Shown in pieces: positions 9,177 to 61,100 of a DNA stretch of 64,000 bases. Under the pieces are notes generated by a model. That model was not told the DNA's origin, ran no database searches, and saw nothing but the letters and a program-made list of their open reading frames with translations. The stretch is from Ascidiella aspersa (lineage: Eukaryota), in NCBI GenBank assembly GCA_963924565.1, contig OZ004610.1, forward strand, positions 13,640,001 to 13,704,000, in the 5' to 3' direction. Positions within the stretch are counted from its first letter, which is position 1. Every line of letters starts with the position of its first letter. Made by a program: the position numbers and the translations under genes.

Positions 9177-9865
9177 ACAGGTTAATCGACGATTTGGATG
9201 CGTGTTCTTCTTCTGCAACAAAGTCGGAGCTGAACTTTAACTCATGACTACGGCGATTTTTGTCTTGAAAAAAAGAGAAATTTTGACCTAAAAAATAAAA
9301 ATTAAGACAAAATGTTGCATATTTAATTGTTTTGAAAAAATGTTGGCTTATCAGAAATATATTGATTTGAACAACGCAATGTTGTATGAAGTACTACATT
9401 AGTGCCTTGGTGTCTTCAGTTATTTGTTTTAGATGTTTCACTGACACCGGTCGAACACAATCACTTTTTTCTGGTTTATACAAACTCTTAAAAATATTTA
9501 GTTGATTTAAGTACATTTTTTGCAAAGCCTACAAATATTATTATAAAATGTACTTTTTAAGCTCGTATATTGGGGTAGGTTAACCACCAAGAAAGAGACC
9601 AAGTTCTTATAGGCCTACAGCATATATTCATTTTGCAAGGGTCACACATAACAAATTCGTGACGACTTGTACTGTGCAGTGATCACTTTACAAAAAAAAA
9701 ATAGCACGTGGCTTGGTCTAAGCCTGCAGCCCCGAGGTTTAGTTAAAAACATACGACTGTATAATTTAGACTCAATCTGAATAAACTTTCGCCTTTGTGC
9801 TAATCTTGGTTGTTGTGTTTTTGCGCTAATCTTGATTGGCTTTTTGGTTTATGGTTTTTTTTTAC

Positions 9866-9933
9866 CGGGCTCAGGGCCTCGGGTTTGTGTTGGTGACAGC
9901 TGCACCACCCGGGGAGGGGAGCATCATTGCCCG
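9866..9933 (-). ncRNA. Box C/D kink-turn-like structured RNA module at the 3' end of the retroelement
   Basis: Minus strand reads CGGGC-AAUGAUG...CUGA-GCCCG: 5-bp terminal stem, 3-nt bulge, tandem G-A pairs, U-U and G-C, plus inner stems CGGGU/ACCCG and GGUG/CACC. Confidence 0.5.
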
Positions 9934-10202
9934 TTGTTTTATTAAAGTTTTGCGAAAACAAAACAAAGAATACAAGTGAAAATTACAATGAAAAAAAAGG
10001 GAACTATACAAAGTTGCTTTGTTGAGTTTTGTCGAAAAACAAAACATAACAAACAATGCAAGAGATACTTACAATGGGAATGAGAAAAAAGAAAAAAGGG
10101 ATCCAAAGGTAGCAAGTTCTCTCTTGACGAACGAAGATGTCTTCATATAAACTGAAGAACCTGGAGGTGGCATCTTCGAACATCTGAAATGTAGAAAAGG
10201 CT

Positions 10203-11295
10203 CTAAAATGTAGACTCGTGCGCATACAGCTCGCATTGCAGCTTGCTGTAGAGCTGTTTCGACTCTATAAGACAGTCACATTGAGTTGACTGCTCCTTCA
10301 TGAGAGGGTTGAAATAGTTGCGGCATGTTCGGCAAAAGTACCCGGTGTAGTTACCACCCGCGGTCACTGTTTGGGCTTTGATTGCCGAAATCTCTAGGGT
10401 GTAGTCGACTAATCGACGCTTCGGTTTATGGGCTGGTGTTTTGGAGCTTCCTTCTGAAGTTGAGGATCTGTTCCTCTTCCCTTGTGGAGATGGGTCGCTG
10501 GAAGAGAATATATGAGAGGAATTACCGCTCGCGGAATCGATTCCAATGCCAATGGCATTGAGCGAGTTCTCAAAAGCATGGAACTCCATGAAAGCATCTT
10601 CCTCGAGCTGGGCCTCGAGGAAGTCATTTCGACACCGTGATCGGCGTTCCAGCGAGCAGTGGAGAGCCTCCTGGTAGTACCTCCATAGGAGGAAAATTCT
10701 CGTCGTTCAGAGGCGGTGGCTCTGACCTGACGAGTTGCTCTTTTTTTGTCTTTTTTCTTTGCCAGTTTTGGACACGACGGTATTTCGTGGCCCATCTCTT
10801 TGCAGTAGTTGCTAAAATTCGGCTGACCTTGGTAGAACACCGCTACCTTGTCTTCCCGAGTTTAACCATTTTCGGGATAGGATTATTCTCGATTTCTGAC
10901 CTTTTCAGCGTCATTTCTCTCTTGCCATTGGCACATTTATCATTATCCCGAAGGATTCTGACTTTCGAGCACTCGGCATATTTGAGAGTGAACCATCTCT
11001 TGATGGCATCGTTTCGCATTCGCGGCGGTACATATGACAGTTTTGCCTTTATTTGATCCTCATCAAATAGCTCGGCAAAACTGCATTCGGGCCTCGCCCG
11101 TAGTAGTGCTGTCAAGGCGGCAGCAGATTCTCTTTTAGTACAGGTGAAAGTGACATAGCCGTTCGGCTTTTGCACAATAGCTTCAAGGTGGTCGATCCAG
11201 TCTCTCATTGTCGGGTAGCTGGCAGTTGCAGGACGGTCTTCGAGAAGAGGGTCTACTTCATTGACAGCCTTTTTGGTGCCTTTGCTTGCAGCCAT
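10203..11295 (-). pseudogene. Frameshifted gag-like/ORF1p-like nucleic-acid-binding protein with zinc knuckle
   Basis: Three consecutive ORF pieces (11295-10843, 10840-10409, 10589-10203) can be joined by frameshifts. They contain VFYQGQPNF(S)NYCKEMGHEIPSCP, the YxGQPxxCxxCxxxGHxxxxC motif of L1/Tx1 ORF1p and ZCCHC3 with the first Cys changed to Ser, then a basic/Ser-rich linker and a Cys-rich C-terminus. Confidence 0.7.
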
Positions 11296-14200
11296 TTTGA
11301 CGGGAGGTTCTTCTGTGCTTTCGACGACGAAGAGTGCTTTTTGGTTTATGTTTTAGTTCGCTTGAGTTTATTTAATGTGTTTCATCGGGATTTCGCTGAA
11401 AAGTTAAAACGTTTGTTTATTTAAGCTATAGATGGGCGCATTTTTTCTTTATACGCGCGATTTGTTTTGCGAGCTCGACTCAAATTTGCTGAATGTATTT
11501 AACTCATTTTTTATGACGTGATTTTCCATCGTAATATTTTAAAGTTGGTATTTCACCTCTCAATCAAGCATCTTAAATCCATACCATGGTTTGTTGTATC
11601 AGGGGGCCGTACAAGAATCCGCCAAGCCCAAGGGGCGTTAATACAAAAAGGTGAACACTTGTCTACAAAAATAACATGCTTAGAATAGTAAATTGTAAAC
11701 TTAGCCTTACTGAAAAGGTATTTATGTGTCCGATGCACCAAGTCTATTTTCAAGGTAAGCCATAAGCTGCTGTACATGGAGAAAAAGGTTAATCACAAAA
11801 ATCAGCTTTTTGCACGGACTTAATGCTTGGATCTTGATGAACAAAATCGTATTCGACGGAGGCAACAGCTGTATATAGAAAAGTCTGATATACGTGATAG
11901 AAAGTCTCATAAACTTGATGTTTCAAAATGTTTATAATTTATGTTGCACAATTTTAGCTGAAAACAAAACATTTTTCGTATTGTTTTTTCACCATGTGCA
12001 ATAGACAATCGGCACCAGCTAAGTGACATCGCAAAATATTCCTCTACATCAGTGGTTCTAGTCTAAGTTAACACGGCGCAACATGCCATATTATATATTT
12101 ACAAACCCGCCTTTAGGCTAGAGTTTATTTTAAAGGCTAAAAAAACAAATACTTATTTACATAGTTAAACTTTGCTAAAAGTATATTTTGGGGAAGGGCG
12201 GGGCTTGGTAAACCTGTGCGGTGGCGGAATTAGCCAAAAATTTCAACAATTTTGAAATTGAACTAGTAAGAATATTTGGTTTAGCACACCGCCTATCAAT
12301 GCGGAAAAAGACAAGACACCCAGAGTACGCAAACTATAATGTAATAAATTGACACTGAAGCTGCTATACCTCACAGAGAAAAATCGACTTTATAAAAAAC
12401 ATAAGCATATAAAATAACTATTTATAACGAATATATAATGACACTATGATTAAAAGTCCGTTCGTCGCTTCCCGCCAGCGAGGCTCGTTACAACTCGACC
12501 TATATTTTATTTTATCCTTTCACGATGACAACGAAGCACACAAATCTGAGAGCCGATCGAAAGTCGTCGCTAAGCGTAACGATGTTTTGACCCGTTTCAT
12601 ACATAAAAAAAAACGCTTAGCCTTAACTTGCAGGTAATGCCTTGGTAATTTCAATTGCCGTGCTAACTCTTGGGTAATCTTGAGCGCTCAAAAGAACAAC
12701 TGATTGAGTTTTAACGCAATACTCTGTACCCCCTGGCTACGCCTATTACCCTCGGATGCACAATGAGCAAAAAACTGTTAGGCACACCAGCTTTAAAAAA
12801 ATACAGTACATTGTTTGTACGGCTATCACGTTAAACAAACATAAAAAAATAAAATATTACTAAATAGCTTCCGGCCCACTATAAATGGCTGACAGGCCCA
12901 TAGTTTACCGACCACTGTTCTACGTTCTACATTATCGAACAGCAGTCTTCATATGTTGCGTCCCTGTTGTTGTTGGCTGCATGTGGCAAGTTTGCTGGTG
13001 TAAATGTATTCCGGGCGATAAACGCGAAAAAGTGTGCACACGAAAGAGGCAGATGAAGGTGTGAGAAAACGTGAGAGAAAATAGAGATCCGTCCGGGGTG
13101 GCGGTTGCATTGGCTTTTTATTGGGCGAGGATCGAAGTGCCGATGTAACCTTTGGTCGAATTCACGAAAAAAAACAAGGAGACGTCGAAGGCCAGACACA
13201 AAATAAATGATCACGAAATGTGAGAAAGCTAAGTATTCCAACGGCTCGACAACGCCGTCACTTTGCTGACAAATCGTTGTTGCAGAGTAAGAAATAAAGC
13301 GTTGTGAAATAGCAACGTAATAAAGACATTTTTCTGTAACTCACACGTGTTAGGTGAAAGTTTACAACACGACCAGAAGCGAAAATGAAAAATAAAAATA
13401 CAGATAGCGAAATACCTGGTGATTCTGTGGTATACTAGAAGCACATTGGGATGTTATCTGCGGATGTCAAGGCACTGTGAAAAATACGAAAGATTCGGCA
13501 ATGAGGGTAAATAGCAAATGTTAAATGACTTTTTTGTTTAAATGCCATAAAAACGAAAACAAATCGTTACAAGTTTCACTTTTGAATTTCACTTTTATCA
13601 CATTTTCACAGCAAAAATTGAACGTAACAAAACACCTGACCGAAACCAAGCTTTCTTGGGTAAAACCGTGAAGCAAATTTTAAGCCGGTAAGAAAGCATT
13701 TAGAGAAGTAAATCACTTTATGTAAAGCAACAGTGGCCGTTTTTGTTATGACAGCACCGATTTTATAGACAAACAACTTGAAAGTTGACGTGCTCGGGGA
13801 ACGATTGCTTAAACAAAAAGAAAAACGAAAGAAAATAACGGCGACAAATCCACAAAAGGAAACACGCGTTTCAGACACGAAACAAGAAATAAACGATATT
13901 GCATTTTTAGCAAGCAGATAGTACGTTTTTCCATTTCACGTATCAAAGTGCACATGCGCGATTCGGTAACCGGCCAGCCGATCGAAAGCTCCAAAATGGG
14001 TTAAATTGGCTTTAGAGAATTCGAAACACGTGTTCGTATAATTTTTTGGGTGTGGCATGGATAGTAGTGACATAACATGTAAAATTCGTCGAATGGCAAT
14101 GGTGGGTTATCTATCGTGTATATTGCCGTTGTAGTGTAATCTCAAATACGGCAATGCGATGTTAAACAAAAGACGTGGCTGGACGAACAAAATCAACGGA

Positions 14201-42143: not shown

Positions 42144-42741
42144 CACCCGATCCGTCAGAAATTAGTGCAGTTCTAAGCAAAAAGGTCTACGACAATCAGT
42201 GCATTTAAAGGATCAAAAATTCCGACTTTTAGACTTTGAGGTCTTGGACAATGCACTAATTTGCATTGACAAATGTGCATAAGAAGATTAAGTTTAACAA
42301 TACTTGACCCAATCAAACCCAAACGCTAACCAGCGATAATGTGCGATAATTTAATAATTATAACGCTTCAGGCCCCAATACCTCAATTTGTGACGTAATA
42401 ATCTTAAATACAATGGACGAGAAACCATCCGAGTTTGGGCTTTTTTCCCCAGCATTTAAAGAATTATTAAAATAACGCACATTATTTGAGTTAGGATTCG
42501 GGTTAGCGTTAGGGTTTAGGTGGGTCAAGTGTTATTAATCCTATCTTACATTTTTTGTTATCTTTTCTGAACTTTTAATGAATATTTTTAATTCATCTTC
42601 GCCGGGAGTTTACCTAAAGGTCCAAATCAGTGCATTGCCAGGACCTCAAGGTCTAAAAGTCTAGACTTTTCTGCCATTGGATGCCCTGATTGTCGTAGAC
42701 CTTTTTGCTTATAAATGCACTGATTTCTAACGGATCGGGTG
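42144..42741. mobile_element. Foldback MITE with ~120-bp TIRs and 7-bp TSD (P/Galileo-like), copy 1
   Basis: CACCCGATCCGTCAGAAAT... / ...ATTTCTAACGGATCGGGTG. TSD ATTTGTC at 42137-42143 and 42742-42748. Confidence 0.88.
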
Positions 42742-42952: not shown

Positions 42953-43560
42953 CACCCCATCCGTCAGAAATCAGTGCAGTTCTAAGCAAAAAGGTCTACG
43001 ACAATCAGTGCATTCAAAGGATCAAAAAGTCCGACTTTTAGACTTTGAGGTCTTGGACAATACACCAATTTGCATTAAGAAATGTGCATAAGAATATTAA
43101 GTTTAACAATACTTGACCCAACCAAACCCAAACGCTAACCAGCGCCCTAACCAAATAATGTGCGATAATTTAATAATTATAACGCTTCAGGCCCCAATAC
43201 ATCAATTTGTGACGTAATAATCTTAAATACAATGGACGAGAAACCATCCGAGTTTGGGCTTTTTTCCCCAGCATTTAAAGAATTATTAAAATAACGCACA
43301 TTATTTGGGTTAGGATTCGGGTTAGCGTTAGGGTTTAGGTGGGTCAAGTGTTATTAACCCTATCTCATATTTTTTGTTATCTTTTCTGAACTTTTAATGA
43401 ATATTTTTAATTTATCTTCGCCGGGAGTTTACCTAAAGGTCCAAATCAGTGCATTGCCAGGACCTCAAGGTATAAAAGTCTAGACTTTTCTGCCATTGGA
43501 TGCCCTGATTGTCGTAGACCTTTTTGCTTAGAAATGCACTGATTTCTAACGGATCGGGTG
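42953..43560. mobile_element. Foldback MITE with ~120-bp TIRs and 7-bp TSD (P/Galileo-like), copy 2
   Basis: Near-identical to 42144-42741 but with a different TSD, TAAATTT at 42946-42952 and 43561-43567. Confidence 0.88.
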
Positions 43561-48901: not shown

Positions 48902-51900
48902 TTATAATTGATACCACTTTTTGTTTTTCATTTTTAGCATAATTGCATGGGCATTAGCGGAGAACTTCTTTGCAGACTCGTGCATTTCCTCCGTTTTTTC
49001 CTCAACGCTAGCCAGTTTTTGACCGCGTTCCATCGCTTTCATCTTTAGCTGTTGCATGTCCGCTGCCAATCCAGTGGCGGTGCGGTCCAGCTGCTTAATT
49101 TGGGGTACAAACTTTGTTGCAATGCCCCGCGAAGCTGTTCCGCTGTTCTTGCCAGCAAACAACTCTGCTCTGTCCAACTCCGAGTAGCCTTGGCCAAACA
49201 GTGTTTTGATAATTCCATCCTGCTGGCGTTCAGGGGCCTGGCAGGGTGTGAACAGATTGCACAAGCTTTCCTGTAAGTTTCCATACACTTCTGACATAAA
49301 GGTGATGTGCTGCATCTCTGATGCACTGCACATGTAAGCAAGGCTTGCAGAGGGGGAAAATGAGCTTGTCTGCAGGCAACTGCTTGGAGGTGGCACCAAG
49401 CTGGGTGAAATAAACAGTGGGGTGAGTTGTGGTAGGGATAGCACAATAATGGAGCCCTCTGACATGAGACATGTATAAAAACTCCCAAGGGCAACTTTCT
49501 CGATGGAGCTTTGAGTGATTTCACCAAGATGCGAACTGATTTCATAAGATCTAGAACTGTTGCTTAAATGGGATGGCACATTTAGGATTGTAAAAACTTT
49601 TACTTTGGTCTTTGACGCAACAACAACATATTGTACTTTAAATTCAGGTACATCAAATGATGATTTTGATGAATTGGGTTTCAACTGGTCCTTTTGAGCA
49701 CCAACAAACTTATTCAATGATTTAACACAGACTACATTACCAGCTGGATTTAGAATCTCACAAAAAGTAATTGCTCCGTTCAGCTGGAAGGTGCAATCTT
49801 TCATAATAGCACTTTCAATTCCATCGGACGTAAGCTTCGAAAGTTCTACATAAAATAAATTGCCAAGATCTGTTCCAAGCCATAAACAGGAACCGGGCAG
49901 TGACTTGTATGAATATGTGACAGATATTTTCATGTAAGTAACCACTTCTTGTAGTTCATACTGATCTTCAGTACTTGAGTTTCTGTTGCTAAAAGACCCA
50001 TCAGCTGCAGAATGATCTAAATGATTTTCAAAACTTGCACTGCTAAGCATTTTGGTAAGTTTAGAACCACTGCTTTTTGAGTCGGTGCTGTCTTGTGATT
50101 TAAGAATGCCCCCATCCTCATCATAAAAAGACGATGATGATGACTTTGGCCTACAAGGGCTTTTAGGTGTCAATGACTTGTGCAGAAACCTTGATATACT
50201 GCCTGTGTTCACATTGAGAAGAAAGGACTTCGCATTAAGGTCAAATATATGTAATGTAGAAGCACATGTTGCTACGAAAAACAAATCTACAGATGATTCC
50301 ACTTTCATGCAAGTTACCTTGTGTGGTGATTCACCAATTGGTTGTAGAAGTAAGAACACATACTCAGCCTGAAAGCCAGCACTCTGGCTGGGTTTAGTGC
50401 TTTTTAAATGTAGAGTAGGTTTTGCATGTTGAACTGAAGTAATTGGAGACTCTTCATTTGCAGGTTCAACTAAGGTACCTCTGCTACTGTTTTTGTTGGC
50501 TGATATCAGATCTTCCATTGTACCGCTTGCCAATGGAGAAACTAGAATTTCCTCGTCTTTCAAGGGGCAAGAAATCGTAGATGCAGATGGATTAATGTAA
50601 AACACTGCCAAGTCGTTTTCTGAGGCCTTTTCATTTAGATTAAAGATTACTATGCTTCCACTATTCGAAACTACCATAGTTTGGTTTTCTGCGCAAACAT
50701 CAATACACTGAACTGCCAATTGGTTAGCACTTTCAGGTTCATCATTAGGCTTTTCAAATAGCTTCTGGGTCTTCGTTTTGAGCAGATTTGTCAACACAAC
50801 TGAACTTGCATTCCAAAATCGAACACAGCCATCTGCATGGCCAGTTACAAATATGTCAGACCAACTTTCCACTTCATCATTCCATTCTCCGCCATGAATA
50901 GGCCAAAGCTTTTCATTTCCACTTCCACTGCTTGACTTAAGAAGGGAAACATACTGTAACTTTTGCAGCAAAGCAACCTCTTTGTCACTGACATACTTTA
51001 AGAAGGTGACAGGTGAATCGTGTATTTCTAACACATGTGGTATTTCTAAACAGTGATATCCAGGAACTTCCAGGTCAACAAAAAGCAATTCCTTTTCTAA
51101 AAGAATTGCGACAGCACTCGGGTCCTGGAACTCACATTTCCAAGGAGTCCTGACAATTGGAACAAAATCAATAATTGGAAAGTCCATCTCTAAAGCAGTG
51201 ACAGATTTTCCCTGCATTATGGTAATGCAGGGTGTTGGCAGCAAATTTCCTTTTCTATGAAGGCCACCAGAAAACACAATGTAGTCACTCTTTTGCTGGT
51301 TACTGATCCATTTCAGCTTCTCAATGGGATTATTGATTTCCTGGCGATGATTGGAATCAGGGATTGATTTGTCATGAGGAAGAAGTACCTGAGCTGGCTG
51401 GTCTGCTTGTTTTAGATTCCACACACATATTTTACCATCCACATGTGAAGACATAAATTGTTTTCCTTCGCTATGCCAGGAAACACTAGAAACAGCAGAA
51501 GCACTATAATACCGATATTCCACAACACTTTCTTTAAACTTCCACAATACTAGTAGGCCTGTTGAGTACGCTATCAACATTTTATTCTCATCAAAGGGAT
51601 GCTCAGAAATTGACACAATATGACCAGGATGTTTGCGCTGTGATATGTCAATAGCTTTGTTCCAGTTTATGCAATAGCCTGAAAGTTGAAAGCTTTCAAC
51701 ATTACACAGGTGCACATTTCCCCGTTCTGTGCCAATGTAAATCCACTTGCTTTGATATGGAATATTACACAATGATATATGCTCTCTATTGAACCTAAGG
51801 GAATGTAAAATTGCGGGTTTCTTTTGTCTAAGATTCCACAAGTGAATGGTGTCATCAGCTAAAACAGACAGAAGTGCTCCCTCATTGACTAGAAAAGCAA

Positions 51901-52246
51901 GCTGGATTACAGGAATACTGCTTTCGTGGTTCAGATTAACATTCACCCCAACCTGGCCAAAAATTCGAATGGAGCCATCGCTGCTTCCAGTTGCTAATAA
52001 ACTTTGAACTGGATCAAATGCCATGCAAATCGGCTTGTCCGGAAACCCATGTCGCGCTATGTTGCACACTTGGAAATGTTCTGAGCAGAGATTGGCAGAG
52101 AAATTTACAGAATTTTCTGCAGTTTTCGAAGAATCAGATCCTAGGCTTAGACTGCTTGGACTAAGAGCCTCAAACATGCGTTTGATTCCAGCCTTTTTCA
52201 TGATTATTGATTTCAAATTTGTGCTTTCAAATAAGTCACAAATCAT
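48902..52246 (-). CDS. STXBP5: Tomosyn / syntaxin-binding protein 5, single coding exon
   Basis: 1114-aa uninterrupted ORF with N-terminal RHGFP..MAFDPVQSLLA.G, WD40 repeats, LGL-family motifs (IHDSPVT, WPIHGGEW, TGHADGCVRFW), SELDRAELF and a C-terminal R-SNARE motif ERGQKL..VEEKT..M..SAKKFS..AH.IMLK.KNKKWYQ. The likely true start is MKKAGIKRMF at 52201. Confidence 0.96.
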   Translation of the reverse strand: MICDLFESTNLKSIIMKKAGIKRMFEALSPSSLSLGSDSSKTAENSVNFSANLCSEHFQVCNIARHGFPDKPICMAFDPVQSLLATGSSDGSIRIFGQVGVNVNLNHESSIPVIQLAFLVNEGALLSVLADDTIHLWNLRQKKPAILHSLRFNREHISLCNIPYQSKWIYIGTERGNVHLCNVESFQLSGYCINWNKAIDISQRKHPGHIVSISEHPFDENKMLIAYSTGLLVLWKFKESVVEYRYYSASAVSSVSWHSEGKQFMSSHVDGKICVWNLKQADQPAQVLLPHDKSIPDSNHRQEINNPIEKLKWISNQQKSDYIVFSGGLHRKGNLLPTPCITIMQGKSVTALEMDFPIIDFVPIVRTPWKCEFQDPSAVAILLEKELLFVDLEVPGYHCLEIPHVLEIHDSPVTFLKYVSDKEVALLQKLQYVSLLKSSSGSGNEKLWPIHGGEWNDEVESWSDIFVTGHADGCVRFWNASSVVLTNLLKTKTQKLFEKPNDEPESANQLAVQCIDVCAENQTMVVSNSGSIVIFNLNEKASENDLAVFYINPSASTISCPLKDEEILVSPLASGTMEDLISANKNSSRGTLVEPANEESPITSVQHAKPTLHLKSTKPSQSAGFQAEYVFLLLQPIGESPHKVTCMKVESSVDLFFVATCASTLHIFDLNAKSFLLNVNTGSISRFLHKSLTPKSPCRPKSSSSSFYDEDGGILKSQDSTDSKSSGSKLTKMLSSASFENHLDHSAADGSFSNRNSSTEDQYELQEVVTYMKISVTYSYKSLPGSCLWLGTDLGNLFYVELSKLTSDGIESAIMKDCTFQLNGAITFCEILNPAGNVVCVKSLNKFVGAQKDQLKPNSSKSSFDVPEFKVQYVVVASKTKVKVFTILNVPSHLSNSSRSYEISSHLGEITQSSIEKVALGSFYTCLMSEGSIIVLSLPQLTPLFISPSLVPPPSSCLQTSSFSPSASLAYMCSASEMQHITFMSEVYGNLQESLCNLFTPCQAPERQQDGIIKTLFGQGYSELDRAELFAGKNSGTASRGIATKFVPQIKQLDRTATGLAADMQQLKMKAMERGQKLASVEEKTEEMHESAKKFSANAHAIMLKMKNKKWYQL

Positions 52247-55201
52247 ACAATCTACATTTGTACATTAAAACATTGCTTGTACATTAAGTTTCTGAAAAGA
52301 TACATATAATAGTAACTTCCCCATACCACCGTACATATAAATCTAGACCTGTATGGTAATTTGCTAACTGTATACAAAAACAACGATCTTAAATAATACA
52401 TTTTGTGTATATATACGACCTAAAACTGTATATATGAACATGGGGGCAATGATGGAAGAGCAGGCCATATAAAGAATTTCTAAAATGTTTTTTTTTTAGT
52501 TTTAGTTAGATTATACCTAAGTTGCAGCCCATTAGTTCACAGTGTATGTATTTTTTTAGACATAAAGGTTTTGGGACATAATAAATTCAGAATATCAAAT
52601 CCAACCACCACAGCAGTTTTACCTATTTGAAAAAGTAAGAATTATGAATTATATATAATTATATGTTACACTTTTAATTAAAATAACATCTAAATGACAA
52701 TATATTTGTCATAGCAATAATGGATTTGATAGAGATGTCATATAACATCAAATCAGGAAAACGATAACCGATGCCAGCAGTTCTCCGATACTAGTATAGT
52801 ATCTTTGCCAATGTGATATAAAATTATTATAAGAATTTCAGCCACGATTTGCAGTATAACCTAGAAAGAGCTACCTTGGGGATAAATTTATTTATAAAAC
52901 ATTAGGTTAACAACTGAAGGTAATAAACTTTTACCGATTAAACAAATTTTGGCCTAAAAGCCTAAAAAAATTACATTTGAATATTTCAATTTCATCTTCT
53001 TTGCTTGTGTTAGCATAGTTGCCGTAATTTGGTATCGGACTAAAATACTTTTTTTCCAAAATATTTAAGAATCCAACATTCCTAATGACAGATGTGATAT
53101 TTGAATAATGGTTTAACACTATGTGGTTCATGTTGTTTTGGAAGATTGCAATGCACAGTTACAGACAAATTTCACAAAACATAAACAATTAAATTTTTGT
53201 TTAACTAAGGAGAACCGGGCTAAACAACAAACTTTAAATTTTCATAAATGAACAAATGTTTACTAAGGTTGTAGGCCAACCTAAATCACTTCATTTCAGT
53301 ATTGCTTGTTTAGTATGTTAATCGTTAAAACTTAGCACATACAATATCATAACATGATTATTCAAGCTGCTATAGTAGAGTAGAATAAAACACAAGAAAA
53401 GCAAACAGCTAAAACAATTTGTGAATATACATTAAGTATAAACAACAGAAATTCTGTTTCTTCATTGGTGATAAGATAGATTTTTCGCTGAACTGTCAAT
53501 TAGTTAGGTTTGGGTTGGGGTTAATAGTTGAATTGTATAATGATAAGTAATTTAAGTTTAATTAACCTAGTTATGTAGAAATTTTATTATTTAATATACC
53601 CTTGTAGCCTCAATTAAACATTATTATTCTGCATTGCTTAATTTGACATCACTATGCAGATGATGAAATCCACTGATGCGTGACCAATAGACATAAGGCG
53701 CATTATCAGCGTTTCTCAATTCATTCTACTTAATACTTCTTATAGACTAGCAGCCTGAATAGCTGTGTTACGTTAACGTGTGTACTGAGATTTGTGAATA
53801 TATACTCACTGAGAAATATCATCCGAGTATAGTGTCTTTATCTCGAGTTCAAAAAGTTAAAGACAGATATCTTAGTGGCATGCTCTTTTGGAGTCAGCCT
53901 TGACAAGGAATGTGTAAGAGAGTCAAGCAGCCTTGATTCATTGCCTTAAGAGTCCGCTCCGTTTTACCTGTAACTACAGCTCTCATTTGCTAAAACCTAA
54001 TCCAGTGGTTCTAGACATATGTGCCAAAGCACCCTTTGGGTATCATTTTTATTGAGTTGTATTTCAATTTTTTTATATTCCAAGGTTTGCTAAGCTTCTT
54101 GAAACAATTTTTTGTGTATGTATAGAGTGCAACTAATCAAGGTTTCTTCTACCTTGTGCAGAGTTAATATGTGCAGTTTAATTTTGTTTATTGTAACATT
54201 AAAGTAAACTACTTAAAGAAATTACTAGTTTATAATTTAAGAAGGGTGCCACTACTCAAAAAAGTTTGGAATCCACTTCCCTACTCTAACAATATGTGAT
54301 GTCACAGTTCTACTTGGTAGCAGGACAAATAGCCTATTCATTTCTTATCGCATTCAGCTTCTACAAAACTGTTCACAAACAAAAAATACATTGCTATATT
54401 CCTGCCTGAATTGGCACTTCTCACCTAGATCATATTTTTTTAGAAATGAAATCAAATCAAGGATTATGCACACCTCAGAACAGTAACCTTTTAAAAAATC
54501 AACCATAAATAGAAACTAACTATAAATTTTCTCTAATTTAGCTGTGCAATCTAACTATTCACCGGTCTGCATTCCATGGCATGTGCACACCTAATCTTAT
54601 TTTCTAAATAACTTTGCGTGCACACCTCAATAGGCCCATTACATCATATGGGAAACCCAAGTTCATATTCATTTTCTAGTGGTGCAGGTCTAGTCTGTTG
54701 AAAAAAAAATGCAGGTGCAATTGCCATTCTTTCCGTAGTGGTCAATAGATATATAAATTGTGCACTTAAGTTAAAACACGCTAAATTTTAGTACGATTCC
54801 AAAGCTAAGGTATGAAAAAAACATAATTGCACACCTATACACACTGCAAAATTTGGCTCTGCATTTCCAAAATCTGGGCATGAAGTGCCATGAACTTGCC
54901 TATTCAGGTGTTCACCTGCCACAGAATACAAACTAAAATTAAAAAAGATAACATAAATACACACCTATACATACCAACTAAAACTTTGAAATACACTAAG
55001 CAGTCACATTTTATGGCAATTCTCTTTGAGATCGTTGGTATGGGTGTGTAGTCTAACTTTTTTTCAGGTGTGCAGATGCAATTATGTTTTATGCACACCT
55101 GGCGATTTTCCAAATACATGTGTGTGCTACTCTAAAAAAATGGGCACTCGAACATAATGCAGATTAGAGTGTTACATTCCCAAATCTAGAGAAACAAATT
55201 C

Positions 55202-58103: not shown

Positions 58104-61100
58104 CTACTGTAATTTAGAAGGTGTGGCTGTTGTCTGATTTAGCAACATCTGCTTGCGCTGTCTTGCAAAAATTTCTTTGGTAAAAATAGGTTCAGGCAAA
58201 ACAAGATACCTACAAAACTCTTTGTTTTTCACCTCCGCCTTTATGTTATACGCGGCAACTTCAACATCCTTCGGTACAAACAAATTGTTTCGCATTTTGT
58301 CGTCTTTGACCTGATTCATTGACACTTCAGTTCCGCCTTCGATGCACATTTTTGTAATATTGTCCCTAGCTTTTTGCAGTTCTGCGATGCTTCGATTCAT
58401 CCGGTTCAGTCCGTAGGCTTTAATTTTCCGCCAAAGAGTTCGATTGAAGTGATCAAACAGCGCCGCGTCCGCCTTGTTCCATTTGCGCGCCCCTGTACGA
58501 ATAGTTGCCTTTCTGTCGGAATCGACGTGACCTTGATGGCGCGCGTTCAAGGTCAAGCATGCGAGGTCTTGGATTGGCCAGCAGAGGGCCTCGCTGAGCA
58601 AAACCATTGACTCGTCGTAATGATCGGCGATCAAAACTAAATTGTACCTTTTCGATATTTCGGCGATTGTTTTTTGAACATAAGCTTTTTTTTCGTTCAT
58701 ATTGTCGTATCCAAAGTCAAAAGTGTTCGGGTTCTTCGCAAGTGCCCAGTATTTGCCTGTTTTGGTAAAGAGAACCTTGGCATTCTTAAGCCAGTATTCA
58801 GGCGTAGTTTTGGGAGGTACGCGGCGAAACGATTCTGTCACGTCACGGAAAAAATCGAAACATGATTCAAAATGCGCTCCGGGTTCGCGAATAATGGAGA
58901 AGAAGAAAGTGTCGGGCGGCATCACTGCTCTGACTTCGTCGTAGTTCGCTCGAATGTGCTGAGTCATGATGTTGAATTTGTTCCAATCTATGTTCGCAAG
59001 TAATAAAAGTACGGTTGTTCACTTTAGGTCTCATTGCTAACCATAAATAGTTTTTACCCCTAAACTGTCGGACTAAAAACGGCCTTCAAAATGCAAAGCC
59101 CAACATCTTTTTGACAGCATAGCTTTCTTTTTTAGAGGCGCCACATTTTAAAATACTGACCACGCCTACATACCGCATAAGAACCATAAAATTCATTACA
59201 TTTTTATTTAACCTCATAATTGTAAGTTCGTTTAAAGTATAAAATTGGTTAAAACACGATTGTATAGGGCTGCAGGTGGACAGTTGGTCGAAACAACAGT
59301 TGGCCGAAACATTTCTTACGCCTTTGGGAACAAAATATGCCATTCGACCATTAAGAGCGACAATAAGGAACTTAAACTACGTCCATCAATGTCCGAGACT
59401 CTCCTCGAACCCTACTTGACCGGACATTAGGCACTATTGAGTTTAAATCAACTATATTTTTTTACATAATAGAAATATGTATAAATCTGCTCTCGAAAAT
59501 TGCTGGAGAAGCGCTAATGGTAGATAAAATTAATACTGTTCCGAATTTTCGTCCTAGCTTTTGCGAAATTTAAATATGGAAAACCTAATTATATTTAAAA
59601 TGAAAAACCAAAGATAAATGGGTAAATGGATAATCAATTCCAACACGAAACTTTATCAACTGTTTAAAGAAATAGCATTTAAACCGCTTTTTTAGAGAGT
59701 ATTTTTTATGTTGACATAAAAGAAACCATAGAACACATTTTATCAACTTAGAAACACCCAAACGATTTTAGATTACTTTCTTTATGAAACACCATATTCC
59801 TTTTGAACATCCGCGGATAACCGAAGTTATGTTTGTTGACTGGCATGGCAAAAAACAGATGATATTTCTGGCCGTATCGAAACAAAATATTCTGCAAAGA
59901 AACATACAAATCTGGATTTACTAAATATTTAGGTATTTAAGGCGAAAGCTAGGTTTGCGGCTAGAGACGTTAGCAAGGTTTTTAGTTCATTTTCTAAAAT
60001 TTATAAAATCATATAAAATTGATTAAGGGGTCTCAAACTTAAGGTATATCCACCGACACTAAAGAGTCTCTTATAAGTGGTACGCGTCCACAAGTGACCA
60101 TAAACCACAGACCATAAAGGATCAAATTGTACTTTACTTGGGTGAGTGGTGTTTTCGGCTGTGAAACACAGTCATGAAAAGCAAAGAAATGGCATAGCGT
60201 ATACGTTAAAGATAGGCTTTAAACTTTTTTAGGACATGTTTAACCGAAAACCAAACTATATGTTAAAAAAGTGCCTTTCTTTTCATTTATGGGATACGCA
60301 GGCCGCTGTACCTGTACGGAGGTACCAGCAGTCTTGTGAGTTTTCAGAAAAAAAATGTTGTCCTTTCTTTTGCAAGTTCGTTGTTGAGACCTTTCTTCGT
60401 AAATTGATGTCATTTTTCTGAAAAAAGTACGTTTTTATTTCAATAGATTTTGTTTAACACAAAAAAATTTGAAATAGTAAAAATTCAAGAAATGGTAAAA
60501 ATTGCAGTACGACTGTCAAGTTAAAATTTCGTTCAAGATTTATGCTCTAAGAGTTCAAGCAAGCGAGGTTTATAATAATTTTCATTTTAGGGTACGTTTA
60601 CCTGGTAATGCTGTTCGATCATGTAGGCCTATCCAACGTGTCTAAAATAGTAATTAAAATTGGTACTTTTTTGTTAACGCCTTGTTCTCATCTGTTTCGA
60701 AACTAATTCCAAACAGAGTTGTGAGATATGTTGTCCTCCTATACCTGTTCGATAATCGAGTAGTCTCCAAGTATGCTATTTTCTCAGGTTTGTTGGTCGA
60801 TTGTACAGCAGGAAGCAGCTGACTTGTATTTGAAACAGCTTTTGGTTCGAGATTGTCAGCGTTTGTGGTTGTGCGAGCTACATCGTCTTTTGTAACGATA
60901 ATAGAACTTTGCCTGAAATGTAAACACGCAAACGAGTTACAACGAGAACACATGTATCAACTCTGTATGGTCGCAAACTAAGCTTATTTGGTCCGGGACA
61001 AAGAGTCCTTATCAAAGTGAGACCTGAGCCGGATTAAAGAGGCATAAAAATTTTACACTGAACTTTTCGCTAAATTAAAAGATGCTTCATTTTTAGTGCA

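Follow-up and report, generated by a model that had tools for sequence, protein, structure and literature searches.

How can an element that encodes only the protein of a first open reading frame (ORF1), and neither the endonuclease nor the reverse transcriptase (RT) of an ORF2, come to be inserted in a genome? This question is raised by an insertion of 1482 nt on the minus strand (9854-11335) of a 64,000-nt stretch of Ascidiella aspersa DNA (OZ004610.1, 13,640,001-13,704,000), hereafter the window, to whose positions all plain coordinates refer. In a preliminary description, the insertion was presented as a complete ORF1-only retrotransposon comparable to HAL1, the half-L1. It is probably a decayed copy of an ORF1-only family (family A) sited in histone H2B genes after codon 11, and likely an off-target retrocopy of an RNA driven by the H2B promoter that was made by the RT of a partner element.

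The insertion starts with a piece of a host gene. A search of the organism's own genome matched element positions 1-80 to six places on C8, approximately 4.7 kb apart and with 96% identity over 80 nt, which are units of a tandem H1-H4-H3-H2A-H2B array. The first 75 nt of the element (11261-11335) are H2B and consist of a 40-nt leader that corresponds to the H2B 5' untranslated region (UTR; 11335-11296) and, from the ATG at 11295 onward, 35 coding nt that run through MAASKGTKKAV (11 codons). The leader had been taken as the element's own; together with the first 11 codons it is host H2B, an origin that had been missed. The first base of the element is an A located 31 nt below the TATAA of the cluster H2B genes, with ATTTGCAT just upstream in the array. 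These motifs correspond to a TATA box and a promoter octamer, respectively, and the start of the element coincides with the predicted H2B transcription start.

Sequencing reads connect the head to the array in both directions. At position 11336, 968 DNA reads leave the window and enter the H2B promoter; at position 11261, 822 DNA reads and 88 RNA reads leave it and enter normal H2B. Read depth was 1274 over the head compared to about 4-10 in the unique flank, from which roughly 200 H2B units are estimated, few of them present in the assembly. Four raw DNA reads with four different starts link the family A tail to position 11274. They therefore point to tandem family A copies parted by H2B target and place the nick at the A5 run.

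The insertion is bounded by identical 15-mers at 9839-9853 (element 3' side) and 11336-11350 (element 5' side). By itself such a pair is weak evidence of insertion: in 20 Markov simulations, chance 15-mer pairs at a spacing of 0.5-7 kb occurred with a mean of 1.15 per window. The insertion is considered real because the 15-mers abut ends that are set independently by homology. The 5' end of the element coincides with the start of the H2B 5' UTR, and its 3' end is the base at which poly(A) begins in the copies on C8. The signature of target-primed insertion postulated earlier, with target-site duplication and poly(A) tail, is supported. In element orientation, CT-AAAA immediately precedes the duplication in the upstream flank; if these four A were counted in, the duplication would comprise 19 nt, and one of its copies would have a 1-nt insertion. 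Junction contigs carry the insertion in DNA runs X1 and X2, and one of these runs possibly represents the source sample. Two long contig joints (9557-11347 and 9795-11481) were considered as empty sites and rejected, as they lie off the element ends and have short sides.

All parts that had been described between the duplications are present on the minus strand. The H2B ATG opens a broken ORF1 (10203-11295) with remnants of two domains resembling RNA recognition motifs (RRM), a CCHC zinc knuckle (10772-10813) whose first Cys is replaced by Ser in the window copy, and a Cys-rich C-terminus; the ORF1 remnants end at the stop codon at 10205-10203. They are followed by a U-rich 3' UTR (9864-10202), which aligns collinearly with the C8 copies and includes an AATAAA (9938-9943) 75 nt upstream of the A tail and a tail with box C/D-like geometry (9867-9932: GGGC stem, box C-like ATGATGC, inner hairpin, box D CTGA and GCCC stem). 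The A tail proper is an A9 (9855-9863), compared to A23-30 in the C8 copies, and one extra C follows at 9854. No ORF2 remnant was found in the window by tblastn. Contrary to its designation as complete, the element is internally deleted. It lacks 204 nt (near 11219) and 199 nt (10649) present in the C8 copies, and has further frameshifting deletions of 1 nt (10851), 17 nt (10740) and 4 nt (10624).

A search of the assembly with the 3' UTR returned four family A copies with a 3' end in total, none of which has an ORF2 (0/4); read depth over the family A body was about 2-5 times that of a single copy. The ORF1-only character of the family was thereby borne out. Two copies in the histone cluster, C8:18309283 and C8:18312516, are longer than the window copy, share its H2B junction identically and agree with it to the base at the 3' end, where their A23-30 begins. 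The former (locus L004) contains an intact frame of 506 aa opened by the H2B ATG, which provides the intact ORF that had been proposed to be sought in a consensus; the frame of the latter is interrupted by a 1-nt frameshift. A start codon of ORF1's own is located at residue 55 and aligns with the starts of relatives. The fourth copy, C8:18718748, is decayed, has a 16-nt UTR insertion in common with the window copy, and is followed directly after its 3' end by H2B target letters, which gives the 3' junction to the target. Taken as a propagating family of low copy number, family A comprises two subfamilies, cluster sites, one off-target site and the tandem joins seen in reads.

Comparison of the window copy with the intact cluster copy over 355 codons yielded a synonymous divergence (dS) of 0.31 and a nonsynonymous divergence (dN) of 0.05 (dN/dS 0.17; Fisher p 1e-17). 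Family A ORF1 evolved under purifying selection. As the layout without ORF2 is shared, this selection would have acted on ORF1 after that layout arose. Within the 3' UTR, the stretch at window positions 10130-10190 is near-invariant between the subfamilies, and 32 of 294 3' UTR sites differ between them, which is below the level at synonymous sites.

The ORF1 protein was analysed by several approaches. Pfam searches with the window frames and the family A protein gave nothing above cut-off, with PF23058 (ZCCHC3 RBD) as best match (E 0.19 and 0.061, respectively), and the Transposase_22 domain was not matched by family A ORF1. A word-based protein search with the ORF1 core returned 578 candidates, none at E<=0.001; a profile search returned 134 proteins at E<=1e-10. 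Language-model neighbours of ORF1 belong to CCHC and ZCCHC3-like clusters (best 0.93). A structure model built from a 69-row alignment (pLDDT 94) shows two beta-alpha-beta-beta-alpha-beta units plus a knuckle. Profile and fold comparisons pointed to tandem-RRM proteins and zinc knuckles, with TM values of about 0.3-0.4 because domain orientation differs. On the basis of this model, family A ORF1 is an RRM-RRM-CCHC protein, i.e. a type I ORF1p as described in PMC5203782, which ties this type to Tx1-like elements of non-mammalian animals.

Candidate partners are located next to the family A copies. A 110-kb region of the histone cluster contains ORF1+ORF2 elements with an apurinic endonuclease-like domain (APE), RT and zf-RVT; in the one neighbour scanned, Exo_endo_phos, RVT_1 and zf-RVT were all found. 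The best solved match of the neighbour ORF2 is human L1 ORF2p, and its best named relatives are ascidian pol-like proteins. Elements of L1/Tx1 type occupy all five histone genes (H1, H2A, H2B, H3 and H4), where they are joined to the 5' end or to sequence shortly before it. In the cluster, the H1 junction precedes the ATG by 19 nt and the H4 junction lies upstream of the gene; H2A is joined in the 5' UTR, H2B both in the 5' UTR and at codon 11, and H3 at codon 4. Instead of the dispersed L1-like family proposed initially, family A is one targeted to histone genes, and ORF2-bearing candidates for the partner with the same tail that had been sought exist among its L1/Tx1-type neighbours.

In a tree of 23 ORF1 cores (the family C row was pieced together from two frames with an X at the break), family A grouped with M, H1T, C and D (support 94/87, not starred). 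Family M, of which an intact copy exists, is closest to A both in ORF1 (40-42%) and in the tail (79% over 73 nt), and has a dispersed copy headed by the H3 5' UTR. Families B and E, which likewise have ORF1 only, grouped with an H2A-targeting element (support 99/97 and 96/91) whose head and A-less tail are found in family B. As the B/E lineage is separate from A, ORF2 was lost at least twice.

Some peculiarities of individual families were noted. Family B (C8:18307876-18317116; L036, L037), a derivative of the H2A-targeting element, has an H2A 5' UTR head and no A tail, and is sited in the H2B 5' UTR; tandem repeats of a 3.24-kb B+A unit are found in the same C8 interval. Family E (L021:1537 onward; L020; L022) has an H2B head through codon 4, which is in frame in two of three copies, and besides the H2B ATG its next in-frame ATG occurs only about 150 codons later. 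Families C and D (C8:18317118 and C8:18338314) are joined at the H2B site of family A and have two stop codons right after the H2B codons, a double stop that reads as the opposite solution to the in-frame fusion of A. Stacked heads were also seen, with H2B followed by H4 5' UTR on one element (L027:1501-1590; C8:18722026), and an H4-headed element is located at the H2B codon-11 site (C8:18460174). Three family M copies near the ends of C3 and C5 (L057, L058, L059) have an identical 3' flank near three contig ends, and two of them are headed by 33 nt of H4-upstream sequence.

The window copy is not the only element with a displaced H2B head. The H2B 5' UTR motif had 18 matches in the genome, seven of them off C8, and one more was obtained from an element search, resulting in eight dispersed H2B-headed copies. 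All eight start within -3 to +2 of one base, and none includes the promoter. Their bodies are of five different kinds, namely A, B (two copies), C, E (three copies) and F. Clear duplications flank three of the eight (window, C6 and C7) and approximate ones two, while none were found for the remaining three; one copy, flanked by a duplication of 29 bp, is a full element with both ORF1 and ORF2. In family B, the dispersed copy has a head that stops at the joining point of the cluster copy. Among 80 metagenome loci of another organism with a related ORF2, H3 N-terminal codons follow the element tail in three (L073:4147-4425, L086:10543 and L089:5604; the latter two are probably one locus), and these share a tail that differs from the one described here.

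That tail was examined further. In all six element 3' ends compared (family A and five others), GGGCAATGATG is located upstream and CTGAGCCC directly before the A tail. The tail pattern had 25 matches in the genome versus none for a control, and is common to family A and ORF2-bearing families. Measured against the box C/D consensus, the family A tail resembles a box C/D small nucleolar RNA (snoRNA) in that its spacing is that of a kink-turn, with a terminal stem, a 3-nt bulge, GA/AG, and box D abutting the stem. It differs from such an RNA in being placed at a retrotransposon 3' end before an A tail, in a box C that ends in C, and in that Rfam gave no C/D match over the tails in the four loci containing them. 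Box C is fully canonical in 11 of 16 distinct tails.

RNAalifold predicted a 5-bp terminal stem from 13 tails. Four of the five stem pairs are invariant and one pair shows a single double change, which was equalled in 100 of 500 shuffles of rows that had been picked by motif; covariation in the stem was therefore not significant. Folding of five tails as single strands gave a z score of 0.02 for the window tail and -2.2 at best, local hairpins competing with the terminal stem. The C/D-like tail was absent from the 80 metagenome loci apart from one chance-like match on the opposite strand, and is therefore not general among relatives. A locus at C7:31068874-31068932 (L063:1373-1432, minus strand) has tail-like ends without an A tail and sub-threshold matches to C/D snoRNAs; judged by its sequence it is probably a box C/D snoRNA, and possibly the donor or a relative of the retrotransposon tail. 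The AATAAA, 75 nt from the A tail, would be too distant for ordinary cleavage unless the tail folds.

These data are best explained by the following scheme. Family A would have no promoter of its own and would be co-transcribed from H2B, whose ATG would open ORF1 as an N-terminal fusion. The ORF1p would bind its own RNA, presumably as an RNA chaperone, and the APE-RT ORF2p of a histone-cluster element would recognise the shared tail. Such mobilisation in trans, already suggested in the preliminary description, would fit the shared tails and the shared target site. The ORF2p would normally nick H2B at the A5 run in codons 8-9, where the head matches the target and the join would be seamless. 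At an off-target site the head would remain visible between the duplications, and the copy, for want of an upstream promoter, would be dead and decay. Target choice is described in PMC4494074 as set mainly by the endonuclease; an enzyme of the C/D type is therefore favoured as partner.

Several observations weigh against this scheme. In one RNA run, of which 6% was searched at 92% likeness, 88 reads fell on the head, all continuing into normal H2B, and none on the body; the lack of body reads says little because only about two were expected (A-bearing junctions make up about 2% of H2B junction reads, assuming equal transcription). Just one family A copy is located off C8, and the search for an empty site that had been proposed earlier found none in DNA runs X6, X1 and X2. 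The A-like but decayed fragment at C8:18510995 passes from mid-ORF1 into ORF2 remnants. Its ORF2 piece is 96% identical to family M over 49 nt and the join lies in mid-ORF1; it may therefore be a deletion composite. At C7:2028724, a 22-nt H2B head is fused directly to the 3'-terminal 110 nt of family B, and a deletion or template jump is therefore needed. The heads of dispersed family E copies stop at codon 4 and the E-like copy in the cluster begins at codon 11. Family M, the closest relative, joins at H3/H4 sites and not at the H2B site of A. Finally, no intact ORF2 of the H2B-site families C and D was found among 26 matches, the longest open frame near C being 749 aa.

Alternatively, the element might have acquired its H2B head in the course of insertion, through a template switch to an abundant H2B RNA or annealing with it, much as U6-L1 chimeras and SINEU heads arise, and be transcribed from its own promoter or another source locus. 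The head joined to a 3' fragment at C7:2028724, the stacked H2B and H4 heads at C8:18722026 and the H2A head of family B are in line with this view, and template switching has been proposed for SINEU heads (PMC4494074). However, in families A and B the head ends at the junction base of the cluster copies, which is not where one would predict a jump onto H2B mRNA to start, and we regard such an origin as unlikely. A host-retained H2B-ORF1 fusion gene that is no longer mobile, for example a dominant-negative restriction factor, of which the window copy would be a one-off mRNA retrocopy, would account for the small number of copies (four in the assembly, and the low body depth), the strong purifying selection and the in-frame fusion. 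It appears improbable in view of the genomic A tails of 23-30 nt on the cluster copies, the tandem joins at the target, the frameshift in the second cluster copy, the tail in common with autonomous elements, and the second, independent ORF1-only lineage (B and E) that groups with the H2A-targeting element.

There is little reason to assume that an ordinary ORF1+ORF2 element suffered a single internal deletion, with selection acting only while ORF2 was attached. The fragment at C8:18510995 that runs into ORF2 remnants and the many deletion-riddled copies in the genome would fit this possibility, but two subfamilies separated by a dS of 0.31 have one and the same layout of ORF1 stop, UTR and tail, so that the loss predates their split; a one-off deletion would be tenable only if gene conversion had made the 3' ends uniform. 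The two additional segments of approximately 200 nt in the C8 copies could be taken as introns, in which case the window copy would be a processed pseudogene derived from a host gene with introns. The introns were rejected: the 204- and 199-nt segments end in CT..GT and GA..AC instead of GT-AG and belong to the coding sequence of the intact copy, and genomic A tails are present on the C8 copies themselves, which leaves this origin a negligible chance.

Family A, as the off-target retrocopy reading takes it, can be compared with several known systems. HAL1 of mammals codes for ORF1p only (PMC5753468). The likeness to HAL1 that had been put forward stands with respect to a non-autonomous, ORF1p-only element of repeated independent origin (PMC5753468; at least two lineages in the setting of family A). 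It fails with respect to the protein, which is RRM-RRM-CCHC (type I, PMC5203782) and not Transposase_22 as in mammalian L1, the parent of HAL1, and family A further differs in its host H2B 5' end, its tie to one site in a gene array and its very few copies. Family A works like HAL1 but is no member of that mammalian group. With the Tx1-clade elements Keno (U2 snRNA), Tx1L, Kibi, Koshi and Tx1-Mar, as described in PMC4494074 and PMC6136364, the setting shares the APE-RT ORF2 of the neighbours, a type I ORF1, a fixed site in a multicopy host sequence and tandem stacking. Whereas the targets described there are snRNA and 5S genes, satellites, microsatellites and transposons, protein-coding histone genes are occupied here, and the site is used by an ORF1-only family.

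R2 in 28S rRNA genes (PMC4494074) is likewise promoter-less and transcribed from its target, and target flank in its RNA aids site-specific joining of the 5' end. Unlike R2, family A has as host a Pol II protein-coding gene that also provides the start codon, its partners have APE rather than a restriction-like endonuclease, and its co-transcription is deduced. SINEU elements, as described in PMC4494074, are similarly non-autonomous, with a host-gene head bringing an external promoter, recurrent head stacking and a proposed Tx1-type partner; they are non-coding with snRNA heads, whereas family A codes for ORF1p and has an mRNA head. Histone-targeting or snoRNA-tailed long interspersed nuclear elements (LINEs) were not found in a search of the mainly open-access literature. 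Repbase may list Tx1 families in histone genes, which limits any claim of novelty.

A broader and distinctly tentative interpretation is that a guild of L1/Tx1-type retrotransposons shares out the 5' ends of the five histone genes, draws on the promoters and start codons of these genes, and has spun off ORF1-only parasites at least twice. The RNA of one branch would terminate in a box C/D snoRNA fold acquired by capture; this fold would recruit snoRNP proteins and move the distant AAUAAA close to the 3' end, so that RNA initiated at a histone promoter would acquire a stable polyadenylated end. In the case of family A, a protein-coding array serves as refuge, in which a non-autonomous element appears to keep ORF1 and to borrow the promoter and start codon of H2B and the enzyme of a neighbour; germline and S-phase-timed expression would come free. 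The family offers a natural test of why half-LINEs keep ORF1p in cis. The array contains related endonucleases with different natural targets, and stray copies map the H2B transcription start. Should a snoRNA-like LINE tail prove functional, it would represent a novel means of processing or protecting the RNA of a retrotransposon.

Apart from the insertion, the window contains an uninterrupted minus-strand frame of 1120 codons (48905-52264) with WD40, LLGL, Lgl_C and C-terminal synaptobrevin-like matches, which corresponds to an intronless tomosyn/STXBP5-like gene. A second minus-strand frame of 304 codons (58107-59018) matches galactose-3-O-sulfotransferase (E 4e-67). Two 600-nt copies at 42144-42741 and 42953-43560 are 95% identical, each with terminal inverted repeats of about 120 nt, and are probably a pair of miniature inverted-repeat transposable elements.

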